Assembly (NCBI GenBank): GCA_963796285.1
Contig: CAWCKW010000012.1
Location: 448,001-512,000 of the forward strand
DNA from: Nitrospirota bacterium
GTDB lineage: Bacteria; Nitrospirota; UBA9217
Length of the DNA: 64,000 nt
Reading direction: 5' to 3'
The notes beneath the pieces are model-generated. The model was not told the DNA's origin. It ran no database searches and saw only the letters and a program-made list of their open reading frames with translations. A program made the position numbers and the translations under genes. Positions 2,590 through 42,717 of this stretch are shown piece after piece. How positions within the stretch are numbered: the stretch's first letter is position 1; each line of letters opens with the position of its first letter.

Positions 2590-3081
2590 ATGCCTACAAT
2601 ACGGGACCTGTTGCAGGAGAACCTGATCATCGAAGAGATCGAAGCCGAGGACAAGCAGGGTGTCCTCCGCGAGTTTGCCCGCCTGCTCAAATCCATGAAC
2701 AGGGTCGACAACGAAGAGGAGCTCTTGCGGGTATTGCTTGAGCGTGAATCTCTCGGCAGCACCGGTATCGGTGACGGGGTGGCGATCCCGCACGGTAAGC
2801 TGCCCATGAGCTCCGGGATGATCGTTGCTTTTGGCAGATCAACTAAGGGGGTCGACTTCCAGGCCATGGACTCAAAACCGGTCCATCTCTTTTTACTGCT
2901 GGTGACTCCTGAAGACAGATCGGGAGATCACCTGAAGGCGCTGGCCAGGATCTCCCGTATTTTTAAAAATCCTGGTCTTCGGGAATGCCTACTGACGGCT
3001 CCCACCCGGCAGGAAATTCAGAGACTGATATGCCAAGAGGACAGCAAATATCCGCAGCCGCAGGCCGTGCTGAAAAAATGA
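2590..3081 (+). CDS. ptsN: PTS IIA-like nitrogen regulatory protein
   Basis: ERESLGSTGIGDGVAIPHGK motif with phosphoacceptor His; HLKALARISR. Confidence 0.93.
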   Translation: MPTIRDLLQENLIIEEIEAEDKQGVLREFARLLKSMNRVDNEEELLRVLLERESLGSTGIGDGVAIPHGKLPMSSGMIVAFGRSTKGVDFQAMDSKPVHLFLLLVTPEDRSGDHLKALARISRIFKNPGLRECLLTAPTRQEIQRLICQEDSKYPQPQAVLKK

Positions 3082-7467: not shown

Positions 7468-7733
7468 AGAAAAAAGAGCTGTTGATCGAGAACAAATTGG
7501 GACTTCATGCGAGGGCCGCGGCCCAGATCGTGAAGACGGCGAGTGCATACGTATCCAAGATCACGCTGGCCAAGGATGGTCTCGAGGTGGACGGTAAAAG
7601 CATTATGGGGATCATGATGCTGGCCGCCGCCAAGGGGTCAACGGTACTTCTGCACGCCCATGGGGAAGATGACGACCGAGCAATAGAAGGAATGGAAAAG
7701 CTTTTTCACGACAAGTTCGGGGAAAAAGAATAG
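7464..7733 (+). CDS. ptsH: Phosphocarrier protein HPr
   Basis: NKLGLHARAA (His15) and DGKSIMGIMML (Ser46). Confidence 0.97.
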   Translation: MKKKELLIENKLGLHARAAAQIVKTASAYVSKITLAKDGLEVDGKSIMGIMMLAAAKGSTVLLHAHGEDDDRAIEGMEKLFHDKFGEKE

Positions 7734-14289: not shown

Positions 14290-16971
<2,682 letters not shown>

Positions 16972-37758: not shown

Positions 37759-39465
37759 ATGCCTTTGTTGGGATCCAGGAGAAGACATTTCCGGGACATT
37801 CCGCGGATCGCTCGGATCATCGCGGTGGCATCCCGCCACGGGTTCGGCCACCTTGTCGAGCAGATGGGTCTGCAGCGTTTTTTCTCGCTCGGCAGGCGAA
37901 TTACTACGTTCAAAACACCCCCCTCCCTCGAACACCGCTTGAGCGCTCCGGAGCGCCTCAGGCTTATGTTCGAGGAACTGGGGCCTACGTTCATCAAACT
38001 CGGGCAGGTGCTGGCATGTCGTCCGGACATGCTGCCTATCGAGTACTCCCGTGAACTCACCAAATTAACGGACGCTGTTGCCCCCTTTCCCTTCCAAATA
38101 GCCAAGGAAATCATTGAGCAGGACCTGCATGGTCCTGTTGAGCGCATCTTTGCCGCCTTTGACGACATTCCCGTGGCCGCGGCATCCATCGCACAGGTAC
38201 ACCGGGCAACGCTCCTTGACGGCTCCAAGGTAATGGTAAAGGTCCAGCGGCCCGATATCGACGCCATCATCGATCGGGACATCAGCATCATGCGGGGGAT
38301 CGCCGACCTCATCGAATCGCGGGTCCCGGAGCTGGCGCCATACAATGTCCCGGGGATCGTGGATGAGTTCGCGCATACCATTAAAAAGGAGCTCGATTTT
38401 TTCATCGAAGCTGCAAACGCGGCACAGCTCAGGAATAACTTTGACAAGAGCGATGTCCTGTACATTCCACGCATATACAGTGAGCTTTCGACCAAGCGGG
38501 TGCTGGTGCTTGAGAGGATCGAAGGCATCCGGATCGATGATTTTCAGCGGCTCGAACAGGCAGGTTTCGACCGCCGGGAAATCGCACTCAAGGGCGCTGC
38601 CGCCTTTTTTAAAATGGTGCTCCGGGACGGGCTCTTTCATGCTGACCCGCACCCGGGGAACATCTTCGTCCTCCCCGACGGCCGGCTCGGCCTTGTCGAC
38701 TTTGGCATCATGGGCAGGGTCACGGAAGAGAATATGGAGCTCTTCGCAAATATATTCGTTGCGCTGGCGGAACATAATTATGATGCCCTTGTTCGGCAGT
38801 ATATAAGCCTGGGTTTCGTGTCCGAAGAGTCCGTGAACATAGAAAAATTCGAACGCGAGATGAAAGAGGACCTTGCCGAGCTTCTGGAACCCTATTACGG
38901 CATGCAGGTGAAGCAGATCGACTTCGGTGCCTACATCGACCGCGTTACCCATATTCTCCTTCGCCATAAGCTGAGGCAGCCCTCGAACCTCTACCTTATG
39001 GACAAGGCGCTCATCACGCTCGAAGGGCTTCTGAAGCAGCTCGATCCGTCATTCAACTATTTTGAAGCGGCACAGCCCTATGTGGCCGAACTGGTCCGCC
39101 GCAGACGAAACCCCCTCCGCGCCGTACAGGCCATTCGGAAGAACATGGCGGACTTCGCTGACGTCTTTTCGCAACTGCCGCGACAGTTGAAAGCGACGTA
39201 TCGGAAATTCATGCAGGGCGACCTGAAGGTCACTATCCATCACGAGGGCCTGACTCAGCTGATCAAGGACCTCGATAAAGCGAGCAATCGGCTTTCGTTC
39301 AGCATTATTACCGCGGCCATCATTGTGGCGTCTTCCATCATCATCCATTCGGGCACGGGACCGATGCTTTTCGGCTTGCCGACGTTCGGCCTGATAGGGT
39401 ATGTTATAGCAGCACTGCTGGGACTCTGGATCCTGGTGGGAATCTTACGCTCGGGACAGCTTTGA
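37759..39465 (+). CDS. ABC1/AarF/UbiB-family atypical kinase
   Basis: EELGPTFIKLGQ, AAASIAQVHRA, VKVQRP, FHADPHPGN, VDFGIMG; C-terminal TM helices. Confidence 0.94.
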   Translation: MPLLGSRRRHFRDIPRIARIIAVASRHGFGHLVEQMGLQRFFSLGRRITTFKTPPSLEHRLSAPERLRLMFEELGPTFIKLGQVLACRPDMLPIEYSRELTKLTDAVAPFPFQIAKEIIEQDLHGPVERIFAAFDDIPVAAASIAQVHRATLLDGSKVMVKVQRPDIDAIIDRDISIMRGIADLIESRVPELAPYNVPGIVDEFAHTIKKELDFFIEAANAAQLRNNFDKSDVLYIPRIYSELSTKRVLVLERIEGIRIDDFQRLEQAGFDRREIALKGAAAFFKMVLRDGLFHADPHPGNIFVLPDGRLGLVDFGIMGRVTEENMELFANIFVALAEHNYDALVRQYISLGFVSEESVNIEKFEREMKEDLAELLEPYYGMQVKQIDFGAYIDRVTHILLRHKLRQPSNLYLMDKALITLEGLLKQLDPSFNYFEAAQPYVAELVRRRRNPLRAVQAIRKNMADFADVFSQLPRQLKATYRKFMQGDLKVTIHHEGLTQLIKDLDKASNRLSFSIITAAIIVASSIIIHSGTGPMLFGLPTFGLIGYVIAALLGLWILVGILRSGQL

Positions 39466-39714
39466 GCTTGCGCAATGCCGGAATAACACTGTATCCGCTC
39501 CGCTGCCCCTTCCCTTCGAGAAGTGAGAAAAGGGAGGGGATGGATCTTGGTAGAATATGGAATAAAGACATATTTGTGCTACGACAGTCATTGTATGTAC
39601 AAGATAAATCCAGTCAATCTTATGCTTCTGTTCGAGTCTATTTAGCAAGACAGCTTGTCTGGAACTGACGTTTGGAATACATGATTCAATAACCTCCTTG
39701 TTGTGTGGGGAACG

Positions 39715-40773
39715 ATGCGAAAAATAGCAAAAAAGAATCTCTGGCTGTTATTCCTGATCTCTACCGCGGCGCTGACAGCCGTTATCCATCTGTATATTGC
39801 CCTCTTTATCCCGCCCTCCAATGAGAAGGTTTGGAAAGAGGTCCAGGTGACCGAAGGGATGAGCTTGAAAGCGATCGCGGGGACCCTGCAGAAAGAAGGC
39901 ATCATCCGCTTCCGGGTATACTTCGAGATCATCGGCAGGTTGCAGGGCTTCAGCCGCAATGTACACGTGGGCTACTACGGGTTGAACACGCACATGAGTT
40001 TATGGGAGGTCCTGGATATCCTGCGAAAGGGCAGGATCATCGAATATGAGATCGTGGTCCCCGAGGGATATAACCTGTACCAGATCGCCTGGACACTGTC
40101 CGGCACTCCGCTTATTTCCGAACCCCATGAGTTCATTGATCTGGTGAAAAATAAGAAATATGTCCATTCTCTCGGTATCGAGGCTGATACCCTCGAAGGA
40201 TACCTCTTCCCTGACACGTACTATCTGCCCAAGGGCATCAAGCTTGAAGATATTCCAAAAAAGATGGTTCAGCGATATAAGGTTGTATTCACTGACAGCA
40301 AAAGAAAACGTGCGGAGGAACTCGGGTTCACCGAGCAGCAGATCATTACCCTTGCTTCGATCGTGGAAAAAGAGGCCAAGGTTGATTCGGAGCGCAAGCT
40401 CATCTCCGCAGTGTATCATAACCGGCTGAAGCTGGGGATGAAGCTCCAGGCAGATCCCACCGCAGTGTACGGCACCAAGGCGTGGATCACAACGGTCACC
40501 AGGGAGGACTTGAAGCGACGGTCACCTTATAACACCTATCTCCACAAGGGTCTCCCTCCGGGTCCTATCGCGAACCCTGGTGAGGGTGCGATCCTTGCCG
40601 CTCTTTATCCAGAGAATGTGGACTATCTCTTCTTTGTCGCTCAGGGAGACGGCAGCCACTTTTTCTCAAAGGATTTCGGTTCTCATGAAAAGGCTATTGG
40701 CAGGTACCGGTCGAACAAGAAAAGGGTGAAGCAGCAGGGGCAGGAGAAGCAGTCCGCAGTCAGCAGTCAGTAG
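39715..40773 (+). CDS. mltG: Endolytic transglycosylase MltG (YceG)
   Basis: VPEGY, LEGYLFPDTY, LASIVEKEA, NRLKLGMKLQADPT, SPYNTY..GLPPGPIANPG. Confidence 0.96.
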   Translation: MRKIAKKNLWLLFLISTAALTAVIHLYIALFIPPSNEKVWKEVQVTEGMSLKAIAGTLQKEGIIRFRVYFEIIGRLQGFSRNVHVGYYGLNTHMSLWEVLDILRKGRIIEYEIVVPEGYNLYQIAWTLSGTPLISEPHEFIDLVKNKKYVHSLGIEADTLEGYLFPDTYYLPKGIKLEDIPKKMVQRYKVVFTDSKRKRAEELGFTEQQIITLASIVEKEAKVDSERKLISAVYHNRLKLGMKLQADPTAVYGTKAWITTVTREDLKRRSPYNTYLHKGLPPGPIANPGEGAILAALYPENVDYLFFVAQGDGSHFFSKDFGSHEKAIGRYRSNKKRVKQQGQEKQSAVSSQ

Positions 40774-40850
40774 TCGGCAGTCACGGCCGCGGATCCCTCA
40801 TTCCGCATAGGCACCTATATATCGATCAAGCTGTTTCTCTTTTGACACGA

Positions 40851-41258
40851 TTAATTATCAAGCATGACGGAGAATCCCGAGAAGGGGGGGAAGGAACTCA
40901 CCTTTGCCGGAAGGCCCCGCGAATCGAATTTTCCATATGCCATCGAGTCGTCGAAGAATCTGATGGTCTGTTTTGTCGCGTCGATCTCGAATTTTCCCCC
41001 ACCGACGATGTCCCATTCCTGGTCATAGATATCGTATCGCTTTCTTTCAGGATCATAGCTCCCCTCAATCCCCTTGTCGAGGCAGAACCGCTCCACGATG
41101 TTGGCATGATATTTAGTAAATTCCTTTGGCGACAGAATGAGATATTCCATTGATCCGTTCCGGATCTGGACGAACTTGCCGATGATTACCGGCGGAACGT
41201 CTGTCTTCGCGATGGCGGTATAGTAGAGAGGCGAGTAATCGATCAATTCGAAGGCCAT
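40851..41258 (-). CDS. Janus/Ocnus (PHPT1-like phosphohistidine phosphatase) fold protein, putative
   Basis: GKFVQIR, YHANIVERF, IVGGGKFEID..KQTIRFFDDSMAYG match the recalled PHPT1 motifs [38 protein letters not shown] in order and spacing. Confidence 0.68.
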   Translation of the reverse strand: MAFELIDYSPLYYTAIAKTDVPPVIIGKFVQIRNGSMEYLILSPKEFTKYHANIVERFCLDKGIEGSYDPERKRYDIYDQEWDIVGGGKFEIDATKQTIRFFDDSMAYGKFDSRGLPAKVSSFPPFSGFSVMLDN

Positions 41259-41514
41259 GGCTAAAGTATATCATGTGTTAGCGACCAGGAGGAAGGGGAG
41301 AAGGGTAGAGGGGGGAGGAAGCTAATAGGTTGGCATAAAGACTACACCTACAACTCTGCAATTTCATTCGACGCAACAAGCATGTAAATACGGGTTGTTA
41401 ATTAGCACGAACGACTCAGCTGAGGGTGCGATTTTAGCGACCTTCTCCAGCGACAATGGCTAGACATCTGTGTAGGTTCCAATCCAGTTTACACGACCTG
41501 CCGACTGAATGAAT

Positions 41515-42510
41515 TTATTGCCACACCATGATTCGACCTTCATTACCCTTAAGTTGCTCTCTTTCCCCGTCTTAACATTTAATACAAATATCATATTGAT
41601 TACATATTGCCTGTCATTATACATAAGTAACAAGCATCAGGTGACCAAACTGCTGGTTCTTCAACCCATATTTCTTCGGTTAGCTTCTTGCTAGTCTGTG
41701 GAGCCAGAATATAGATAAATGAATGCTTAATCTGATAGTTCTCTATTTCAAGCAAAGCAGTTTTTTCTTTACTTTGTGATGACATTATTTTCTCAAATTC
41801 TCCGGTCTTCATTTTGGAATGGGCTATTATCCTCTTAATTATGGACTCGTCTACATCATGAGATAGGTACACAATTTTAGTCCCATCATTAGACACAGTT
41901 GGTGCATAGCCAAAATCAATAATCTTTGTTTCTTCATTTGTTACACTGTCAAAGATGTATATTTTATAGTCCTTCGTACTAACCGCTAATCTTTTTCCGT
42001 CCGGGAACCATGATGGTTTGAATCGCGCCAAGCCAAGATAGAAATTTGCACGTTAGCTGAGCCATCATTTCGAGTAAAATCAAATACCAATCCTTAATCC
42101 AGTCTTCTTGTAATCTCTCATCTGGGTTTCTTGTTTTTACCTGCAAGTAGGCAATGCTTTTACCATCGGGAGAAAAAGATGGGTTCCTCGTAACGTTTTT
42201 CGATGAGATTGTGTTCGACCTTTTGTTATCTGAATATATTAGTAACCTAAAGTCTTCATCTCCTGTAGTCGTAATCACCCTTTTTCTTCCATCACGCGAC
42301 ACGTCAAAATCGTTTACAAGGGAAACAGAGTCGATTGTAATTGCTTTCTGATTGTCCTGAAGATAAGCCAAACTTTTCCATGTGCCAATTTGATACAACT
42401 TCGACATAACCAACACATTTGTCGAGCATGTTTCTGGCGCTTTAAGCATTTGTTGTCATTTGAATTGTAAGAAGTAATATGATTGTTGAGAGATAAAAGA
42501 ACCTCTTCAT
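41515..42510 (-). pseudogene. AT-rich TolB-like (PD40) beta-propeller gene, multiply frameshifted
   Basis: RBS AGGAGG and signal peptide MKRFFYLSTIILLL; repeats NPSFSPDGKSIAY, PSWFPDGKRL, PTVSNDGTKIVY, PAVWSPD. Confidence 0.65.
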
Positions 42511-42564
42511 TTAGAATGCCTCCTACGATTGAAACAATATATTAAAGACGACTAGCTATTTATT

Positions 42565-42607
42565 GAGTAGACCCCTATGATTATGCGCAAATCTACGGGG
42601 TCTACTC
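42565..42607. repeat. Perfect 11-bp inverted repeat at the edge of the AT-rich insert
   Basis: GAGTAGACCCC-N21-GGGGTCTACTC. Confidence 0.6.
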
Positions 42608-42717
42608 AACACCGCAATATGGGTTCATAGTTAGGTAGTCGATTGCACAATTCTAAGTGAACTCTTGGTTTTTCGATGTATATGCTAATTGCAATAGTAC
42701 AGGAAGTAATGCTCAGC

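Follow-up and report, generated by a model that had tools for sequence, protein, structure and literature searches.

A prokaryotic member of the PHPT1/Janus-Ocnus family in Nitrospirota, a candidate phosphohistidine phosphatase

We found that a 64,000-nucleotide (nt) stretch of a Nitrospirota bacterium genome (GenBank assembly GCA_963796285.1, contig CAWCKW010000012.1, positions 448,001 to 512,000 of the forward strand; hereafter the window, in whose numbering all coordinates are given) encodes a genuine prokaryotic member of the family of the human phosphohistidine (pHis) phosphatase PHPT1, the PHPT1/Janus-Ocnus family (Pfam PF05005). The coding sequence, 135 amino acids plus a TAA stop codon, lies at 40851..41258 on the minus strand, and its assignment draws on the open reading frame (ORF), Pfam, PDB profiles, a structure model, Foldseek and VIA-align. 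By homology, we judge the protein to be probably a metal-independent hydrolase of P-N bonds, most likely a protein pHis phosphatase. A sequence-only reading of this DNA had already proposed a PHPT1 relative and candidate pHis phosphatase, an interpretation that our results support as far as it can be computed, with the activity predicted by homology.

A bacterial protein with the PHPT1 fold

The ORF list and the reading of its codons place an ATG at the start of the gene and the TAA at 40851-40853. The four collinear motifs that the sequence-only reading had picked out in a 135-residue ORF are all present and in order, namely GKFVQIR (residues 27-33), YHANIVERF (residues 50-58), IVGGGKFEIDATKQTIRFFDDSMAYG (residues 84-109) and the C-terminal FSGFSVMLDN (residues 126-135), and to that description we add the minus strand. 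The protein matches 405 database proteins at E<=1e-3, nearly all of them 132-138 amino acids long, and an exhaustive search of clusters built at 50% identity matched 283, 122 of them at E<=1e-10. Furthermore, the ratio of nonsynonymous to synonymous substitution rates (dN/dS) between the gene and a 90%-identical orthologue (locus L002) is 0.125 (dN 0.045, dS 0.363), a value that comes from this one pair, as all other pairs were too divergent for the measurement. We conclude that the ORF is a genuine gene, subject to purifying selection, and that it encodes a single-domain protein of about 15 kDa.

Against the Pfam profile PF05005 (Janus/Ocnus) the protein scores 25.0 bits (E 2.2e-5, residues 31-113 on positions 8-93 of 108), over the gathering cut-off of 23 and hence inside the family by that threshold. 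A genome-wide search with the same profile returned a single copy, at 24.3 bits, in the 3.58 Mb genome of 13 contigs, and none of 14 well-known control genomes gave a PF05005 match. NCBIfam gave no family for the window protein, and no SixA or His_Phos_1 model of Pfam or NCBIfam matched it at E<=10.

We built two alignments of the bacterial family. The first (A1) holds the window protein and 45 matches spanning 59-87% identity, from 120 matches listed; the second (A2) holds the window protein and 122 cluster representatives of 120-150 amino acids, from 149 listed (P0121-P0269), with identity falling to about 25% and with P0145, which matched in the N-terminal half alone, excluded. Taken one by one, 108 of the 123 A2 sequences match PF05005 (E<=0.01; the best of them at 3e-10). 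When turned into profiles and searched against the PDB, both alignments ranked human PHPT1 first, A1 at E 0.008 and A2 at E 4e-7 (33 bits).

An AlphaFold2 model of the window protein built on A1 reached a mean predicted local distance difference test score (pLDDT) of 93.9 and a predicted template modelling score (pTM) of 0.88. In a Foldseek search of the PDB with this model the top five matches are all PHPT1 chains (E 1.2e-6 to 5.8e-5, probability 1.00), followed by a match at E 0.14. VIA-align superposed the model on the PHPT1 chains 2nmm_C, 2hw4 and 2ai6 with Z scores of 13.5, 12.9 and 11.0 and a root-mean-square deviation of 2.9-3.1 Å, aligning 104 residues per chain (104 of 106 for 2nmm_C) at 23-24% identity across residues 1-135 of the model and 8-122 of the chains; the fold ranked next stands at Z 4.3. 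In the comparison with PHPT1 structures that the sequence-only reading had called for, PHPT1 is the only clear match by both programs and the predicted fold is not an unrelated one. The similar length that had been pointed out also stands, at 135 against 125 amino acids.

That the ORF is spurious, or that its likeness to the PHPT1 motifs arose by chance, has next to no probability. The modest Pfam score is all that speaks for it, and it is ruled out by the hundreds of full-length homologues, the dN/dS, the confidently modelled fold and the superposition on PHPT1.

Active-site residues and proposed chemistry

According to the accessible part of the published description (PMC4817053), the catalytic site of PHPT1 is formed by Lys21, His53, Ala54, Arg78, Ser94 and Ala96, with Glu51, Tyr52, His53, Tyr93 and Met95 binding the substrate and the phosphate held by the NH groups of His53, Ala54 and Ala96 together with the hydroxyl of Ser94. 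The N-terminal residues Lys21 and His53 that the sequence-only reading had named are thereby confirmed by name in the same text, alongside Glu51, Tyr52 and Ala54, and the string that it gave for the C-terminal half, with Arg78 and Ser94, is found in residues 70-111 of chain 2ai6_A. In the bacterial family the columns that answer to the PHPT1 catalytic-site residues (H51, S105, A52, A107 and, putatively, K28) are the best conserved ones.

The correspondence is most direct in the C-terminal half, where window residues 81-122 align without a gap to PHPT1 residues 70-111 (chain 2ai6_A) in the profile searches with both A1 and A2. The spacing from the GGG motif to the serine is 19 in both proteins, so that the equal GGG-to-SMAYG distance claimed earlier is borne out by this ungapped alignment. 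Within it, Gly86-Gly87-Gly88-Lys89 (40992..41003, minus strand) matches PHPT1 Gly75-Gly76-Gly77-Arg78 in ungapped HMMER alignments. The three glycines are conserved in 122, 123 and 117 of the 123 A2 sequences, respectively, and Lys89, aligned to Arg78, places a basic residue at that position, lysine instead of arginine, which is invariant in the close clade (A1). By direct alignment Ser105-Met106-Ala107-Tyr108-Gly109 (40932..40946, minus strand) is identical to PHPT1 Ser94-Gly98 and is by homology the phosphate-binding loop; in A2 its Ser105 and Gly109 are invariant (123/123), Tyr108 is kept in 119/123 and Ala107 in 100/123.

In the N-terminal half, Tyr50-His51-Ala52 (41103..41111, minus strand) is the putative counterpart of PHPT1 Tyr52-His53-Ala54, with His51 proposed as the catalytic residue on the strength of conservation, the model and what is available of PMC4817053. 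The conservation of this histidine among homologues, which the sequence-only reading had wanted checked, is complete, as the column holds H in all 123 of the diverse A2 sequences, flanked by A in 103/123 and by Y or F in 112/123. In the model His51 is the first residue of a helix running over residues 51-62. We infer from the model that His51 is the equivalent of PHPT1 His53 because it starts helix 1, where the NH groups of PHPT1 His53 and Ala54 bind the phosphate, stands in an identical Tyr-His-Ala, belongs to a model that superposes almost completely on PHPT1 and occupies an invariant column. Lys28 (41175..41177, minus strand), which is K in 119/123 sequences and invariant in the 46-sequence A1, would be the counterpart of PHPT1 Lys21 and anchor the phosphate or substrate; the model places it in its first long strand, and its pairing with Lys21 comes from the fold match, not from a residue alignment. 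Phe29 is likewise conserved in 119/123. Furthermore, the close clade has invariant residues of its own (R57-F58-C59, D79 and W82).

The bacterial proteins also carry a clade-specific insertion of about 13 residues relative to PHPT1, at residues ~63-80 (41019..41072, minus strand), recognised from the spacing and from the model. Strands 66-69 and 74-77 of the model form a beta-hairpin after the histidine helix, and the inserted segment is accordingly predicted to be this hairpin. Between the histidine and the GGG motif the distance is 33-37 residues throughout the 123 relatives and 22 in PHPT1 (His53 to Gly75). The distance from the lysine to the histidine is shorter in the bacterial family, mostly 23 residues where PHPT1 has 32, about 9 fewer.

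We propose that in this site the phosphoryl group would be bound where helix 1 begins, by the backbone NH groups of His51 and Ala52, the hydroxyl of Ser105 and the NH of Ala107, with positive charge contributed by Lys28 and by Lys89 (Arg78 in PHPT1). His51 may then serve as the base that activates the attacking water, and the outcome would be the metal-independent hydrolysis of a phosphoramidate (P-N) bond, most likely that of phosphohistidine on proteins.

Alternatively, the protein could have the PHPT1 fold and no catalytic role, for example as a regulator that binds phosphate or phosphoproteins. The position of Arg78 is variable in the wider family, which fits such a regulator, as does the origin of the Janus/Ocnus name, since the Drosophila proteins were first known from their expression patterns and not from enzymology. 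The residues that stay invariant across 123 sequences, down to about 25% identity, are the catalytic histidine, the phosphate-binding serine and the glycine-rich loop, and the pattern is therefore the one expected of an enzyme; we regard a non-catalytic protein as very improbable.

Distribution and gene neighbourhood

Occurrence across genomes was surveyed in two phyla. In the window's own phylum, 61 of 401 evenly sampled genomes (15%) hold a homologue, two of the 61 being weak partial matches; among the high-quality genomes of this sample the count is 44 of 329. At closer range, 29 of the 63 other genomes of the window's family have a homologue, as does one of the eight other genomes of its genus, where five of the seven negatives are 98-100% complete. 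The gene is accessory, and patchy even within the genus. In the phylum of the Zixibacteria genome we found it in 66 of 151 sampled genomes (44%).

Clade-specific patterns, which were taken from A1 and capture close relatives only, were run over 185,579 species genomes and returned 69 loci, almost all of them titled as metagenome-assembled genomes (MAGs) of Nitrospirota or Thermodesulfovibrionales; the remaining titles are one 'Betaproteobacteria' and one Zixibacteria MAG. We rejected the betaproteobacterial occurrence (L006) as a misnomer, for its contig coordinates and score coincide with those of a genome of the window's own family (G164; the same place as G164/G402), and the synteny of its contig is that of the Nitrospirota loci. 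No eukaryotic PF05005 sequence stood among the matches listed in the homologue searches.

Some homologues look broken. In one (L068:6019-6177) the N-terminal half is out of frame, and two others (G242:C45:48484-48881 and G462:C13:58370-58758) are each split in two, one part containing an in-frame TGA. Such cases fit an accessory gene under loss in some lineages.

Carriage by phages was looked for with tblastn against 50,697 phage records, which gave no match, with an IMG/VR scan, in which none of 18 pattern matches was confirmed, and with a search of BFVD, which gave 0 matches at E<=1e-3. Two observations stand beside these searches: an Atlas cluster of 125-residue proteins (score 0.90), of whose known taxa 40% are viruses, and a BFVD entry of 108 amino acids from Tenacibaculum phage pT24 (A0A1B4XX83), which Foldseek matched at E 3.8e-3. 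They are weak hints that some phages may encode proteins of the PHPT1 fold.

In Nitrospirota the gene stands alone. Across the 69 loci, an ABC permease upstream and mltG/ubiB downstream are kept only at at least ~60% identity, and elsewhere the neighbours vary; some loci have a hybrid histidine kinase with Hpt (5), REC-PilZ (4) or PAS-GGDEF (8) nearby. With a crude calling of neighbour ORFs (greedy longest ORFs), the 94 immediate neighbours at 58 loci included YceG 14 times, Response_reg 3 times and GGDEF 3 times, and a control set of 70 genes at position +/-4 included Response_reg twice and PilZ 3 times. An enrichment of signalling neighbours was accordingly rejected, at 3/94 immediate neighbours against 2/70 controls for Response_reg. 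As to the distribution and neighbourhood of homologues, which the sequence-only reading had suggested examining, homologues are well populated in two phyla, and no conserved partner emerged in Nitrospirota.

In the window itself the gene converges on mltG/YceG (39703-40773, plus strand), with 77 nt between the two stop codons and ubiB/ABC1 (37759-39465, plus strand) beyond. Upstream lie 341 non-coding nt, followed on the minus strand by two overlapping ORFs with PD40 repeats (TolB-like beta-propeller; 41600..42031 and 41979..42449) and by permeases resembling OppC and OppB. The PD40 segment (~41400-42700, 1.3 kb) has 35-42% G+C against 52-63% in its flanks, and the PHPT1-like gene about 48-51%. 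The PD40 segment resembles a gene that has been frameshifted or is decaying, and its DNA may be foreign.

The region directly upstream of the gene (41259..41355, minus strand) is conserved and consists of a CT-rich tract and a -10-like box, as seen in a pairwise alignment with L002 in which conservation is strong over about 95 nt ahead of the ATG and nothing farther upstream aligns. The box is the hexamer TATACT (41265..41270, minus strand), ending 6 nt before the ATG. Counting the window, 21 loci have >=60% identity, and in 11 of them a hexamer of the form TA[TC]A[AC]T stops 6-7 nt short of the start codon. These account for 11 of the 13 such hexamers in the 110-nt upstream stretches of the 21 loci; the same placement occurs in none of 26 loci below 60% identity. 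No Shine-Dalgarno sequence was seen upstream of the ATG, either in the window (41259-41355) or in the upstream regions of L002-L021. Judging from these sequence features, the gene is probably transcribed from a promoter of its own into an mRNA with no leader or hardly any. A generic scan for promoters and terminators found 2 promoter-like sites against 1.9 expected, which is background, and 0 terminators; Rfam gave no family at E<=1 on 40700-41750, and none of 20 RNA runs listed carried the stretch.

The arrangement is a different one in the Zixibacteria phylum, where the target ORF could be assigned at 20 of the 23 loci inspected (L075-L093 regions). At 15 of the 20 the homologue follows, on the same strand and at -61 to +41 bp, a protein of about 350 amino acids, with a major facilitator superfamily (MFS) transporter, an HDIG-domain protein and a protein of about 670 amino acids upstream, and with nuoA-nuoB-nuoC-nuoD-nuoE downstream on the same strand after 58-245 bp. 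The homologues of this clade read CKFV in place of GKFV. The partner of about 350 amino acids has two domains and is, by profile and model, a predicted PHP-family metal-dependent phosphoesterase: it matches TM0559 at 2.6e-8 in a profile search, its model (pLDDT 77.8) matches 3e38 at 4.8e-8 and 2anu at 2.7e-7 in Foldseek, and its scores for Pfam PHP and NCBIfam CehA/McbA fall short of the curated thresholds. A single query did not find this partner in the window's genome. In a quick tree, which is unrooted and has several long branches, the 15 Zixibacteria proteins form one deep clade with a support of 95 in the Shimodaira-Hasegawa-like approximate likelihood ratio test (SH-aLRT), and the other clade joins 52 Nitrospirota rows, the window included, with 5 other Zixibacteria rows.

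Candidate substrates and relation to known phosphatases

The Zixibacteria loci raise the possibility that the fold and the chemistry are as proposed and that the substrate is a small phosphorylated metabolite, such as a free N-phospho-amino acid, a phosphoramidate nucleotide or another labile phospho-compound, with the protein serving as a metabolic or house-cleaning hydrolase. The phosphoesterase in front of the homologue at 15 of 20 loci and the MFS transporter and HDIG protein upstream would suit such a role, as would the lack of enriched signalling neighbours in Nitrospirota, the accessory-like patchiness of the gene in its genus and the activity of PHPT1 on phospholysine reported in the accessible text of PMC4389004. 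This operon context, however, belongs to a different deep clade of the quick tree, the one query for the PHP partner was negative in the window's genome, and the family members characterised in the sources, as far as these were accessible, all act on proteins. We therefore rank a small-metabolite substrate as unlikely, though as the foremost competitor of a protein pHis phosphatase.

A second candidate role is that of a stand-in for SixA, with the substrates that the sequence-only reading had suggested, namely the PTS(Ntr)-type phosphocarriers (HPr/NPr, EIIA) or PPDK, for which the window itself has genes. According to the accessible part of PMC7948535, no bacterial pHis phosphatase other than SixA has proposed targets in vivo, and NPr is its target in E. 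coli; Ndk is a further target in the available portion of PMC12934123. The window encodes EIIA_2 of the PTS-Ntr type (~2608-3030, plus strand), HPr (~7470-7709, plus strand) and a PPDK_N-bearing ORF of 911 amino acids (~14359-15378, plus strand), and the genome has further PPDK_N proteins. The genome, 96% complete, has no SixA of its own above the NCBIfam cut-off (best 26.9 against 74.5 bits), and a search for the NDK domain (PF00334) that was positive in 12 of 14 control genomes found none in it.

The presence of HPr, EIIA_2 and PPDK_N proteins, the missing SixA and the precedent of NPr would all be in keeping with such a stand-in. Against it, the genes for the phosphotransferase system (PTS) and PPDK are 25-38 kb from the PHPT1-like gene, which agrees with the earlier remark that there is no physical linkage to them. 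SixA-like genes (E<=1e-10) occur in 213 of the 401 genomes of the phylum, and a hand count over the 64 genomes of the window's family gave 11 with both genes, 19 with the PHPT1-like gene only, 13 with the SixA-like gene only and 21 with neither. SixA-like genes are thus present in 11 of 30 genomes with the PHPT1-like gene and in 13 of 34 without it, as expected by chance, and complementarity with SixA was rejected; the idea of a simple replacement therefore gains no support. Furthermore, five genus-mates that are 98-100% complete lack the PHPT1-like gene, and three of them also lack a SixA-like gene at E<=1e-10. A SixA stand-in is, in our estimate, quite improbable, if somewhat less so than a non-catalytic protein.

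Several points weigh against the reading that we favour, a metal-independent P-N hydrolase acting on protein-bound phosphohistidine. The function is a prediction from homology. The PF05005 score clears its cut-off by just 2 bits, and a single-sequence phmmer search of the PDB with the window protein did not find PHPT1. A profile of the N-terminal half (residues 16-68; alignment A3, holding the window and 50 of 67 locus segments after the removal of 16 near-duplicates and of L068, which seems to be frame-shifted) did not find PHPT1 in the PDB at E<=10 either and gave chance-level BRSK matches only, a miss that is due to the indels in the Lys-to-His and His-to-GGG segments. The equivalence of His51 and His53 is accordingly a structural one, predicted from the superposed model. 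In the site itself, PHPT1 Gly92-Tyr93 is replaced by Asp103-Asp104, and the Arg78 column varies in the wider family (H 26, R 23, K 17, W 11 and M 10 of 123). As to genomic context, no pHis-carrying protein is linked to the gene and no conserved partner is found at the Nitrospirota loci, the presence of the gene is independent of SixA in the window's family, and the phosphoesterases and transporter of the Zixibacteria loci suggest a small-molecule substrate.

Among characterised proteins the closest is human PHPT1 (2hw4, 2nmm, 2ai6), with which the window protein shares a single domain of similar size, the fold and the Pfam family, an identical S-M-A-Y-G loop, the GGG motif and its spacing to the serine, a Y-H-A opening helix 1 and, putatively, the conserved lysine of strand 1. 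Unlike PHPT1, which is a eukaryotic protein, the window protein is bacterial, and it differs in the insertion of ~13 residues, the shorter Lys-to-His segment, Lys89 in place of Arg78 and Asp103-Asp104 in place of Gly92-Tyr93. PHPT1 also hydrolyses phosphoramidate substrates that are not proteins. The accessible text of PMC4389004 describes it as a eukaryotic enzyme, and in the available part of PMC11277029 the bacterial pHis protein CheA is dephosphorylated by PHPT1 in vitro.

The Drosophila proteins Janus-A, Janus-B and Ocnus and C. elegans PHIP-1 belong to the same Pfam family, and Ocnus and PHIP-1 are described, in the accessible parts of PMC13602238 and PMC9724660, as PHPT1 orthologues with phosphatase-dependent roles. 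Compared by description and not by sequence, these proteins differ in acting in animal pathways (JAK/STAT, G-beta) that bacteria lack. SixA resembles the window protein in being a small stand-alone bacterial protein and in acting on pHis, as proposed here for the window protein, and it is of an unrelated family, the histidine-phosphatase superfamily, with a different mechanism. SixA forms a phospho-His enzyme intermediate.

Full-text searches, from which most subscription journals were outside the coverage, found no paper on bacterial PHPT1/Janus-Ocnus members, and the accessible part of a 2024 review does not mention bacterial PHPT1 relatives. Many database rows carry a precomputed PF05005 match, two (P0014 and P0271) are called 'Janus/Ocnus family' by JGI, and look-alike Atlas clusters, mostly from Nitrospirota, have automatic Janus/Ocnus names. 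Of the earlier claim that such a phosphatase is new, one part stands, as the bacterial members are unstudied in the literature that we found, and the other does not, as Pfam, JGI and Atlas already tag relatives as Janus/Ocnus. The window protein is an unstudied bacterial member of a known family with clade-specific structural differences, not a new kind of system.

A broader view would take the Nitrospirota and Zixibacteria proteins as a second, SixA-independent class of bacterial erasers of protein pHis, acting on two-component, PTS or phosphoenolpyruvate (PEP)-utilising intermediates, with a PHPT1 fold of prokaryotic origin and animal PHPT1 descended from the bacterial family; this we offer tentatively, as possible and on balance doubtful. 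Phosphohistidine is central to bacterial signalling and phosphotransfer. Tempered by the fact that automatic annotation already labels such proteins Janus/Ocnus, the finding is of a well-populated bacterial branch of PHPT1 with its catalytic residues intact, which supplies a candidate second bacterial pHis (P-N) phosphatase that is easy to express. The branch may also offer a route to the evolutionary origin of PHPT1, and its natural variation, at the Arg78 position and in the inserted hairpin, may be informative on the mechanism of a human enzyme that is studied in medicine.

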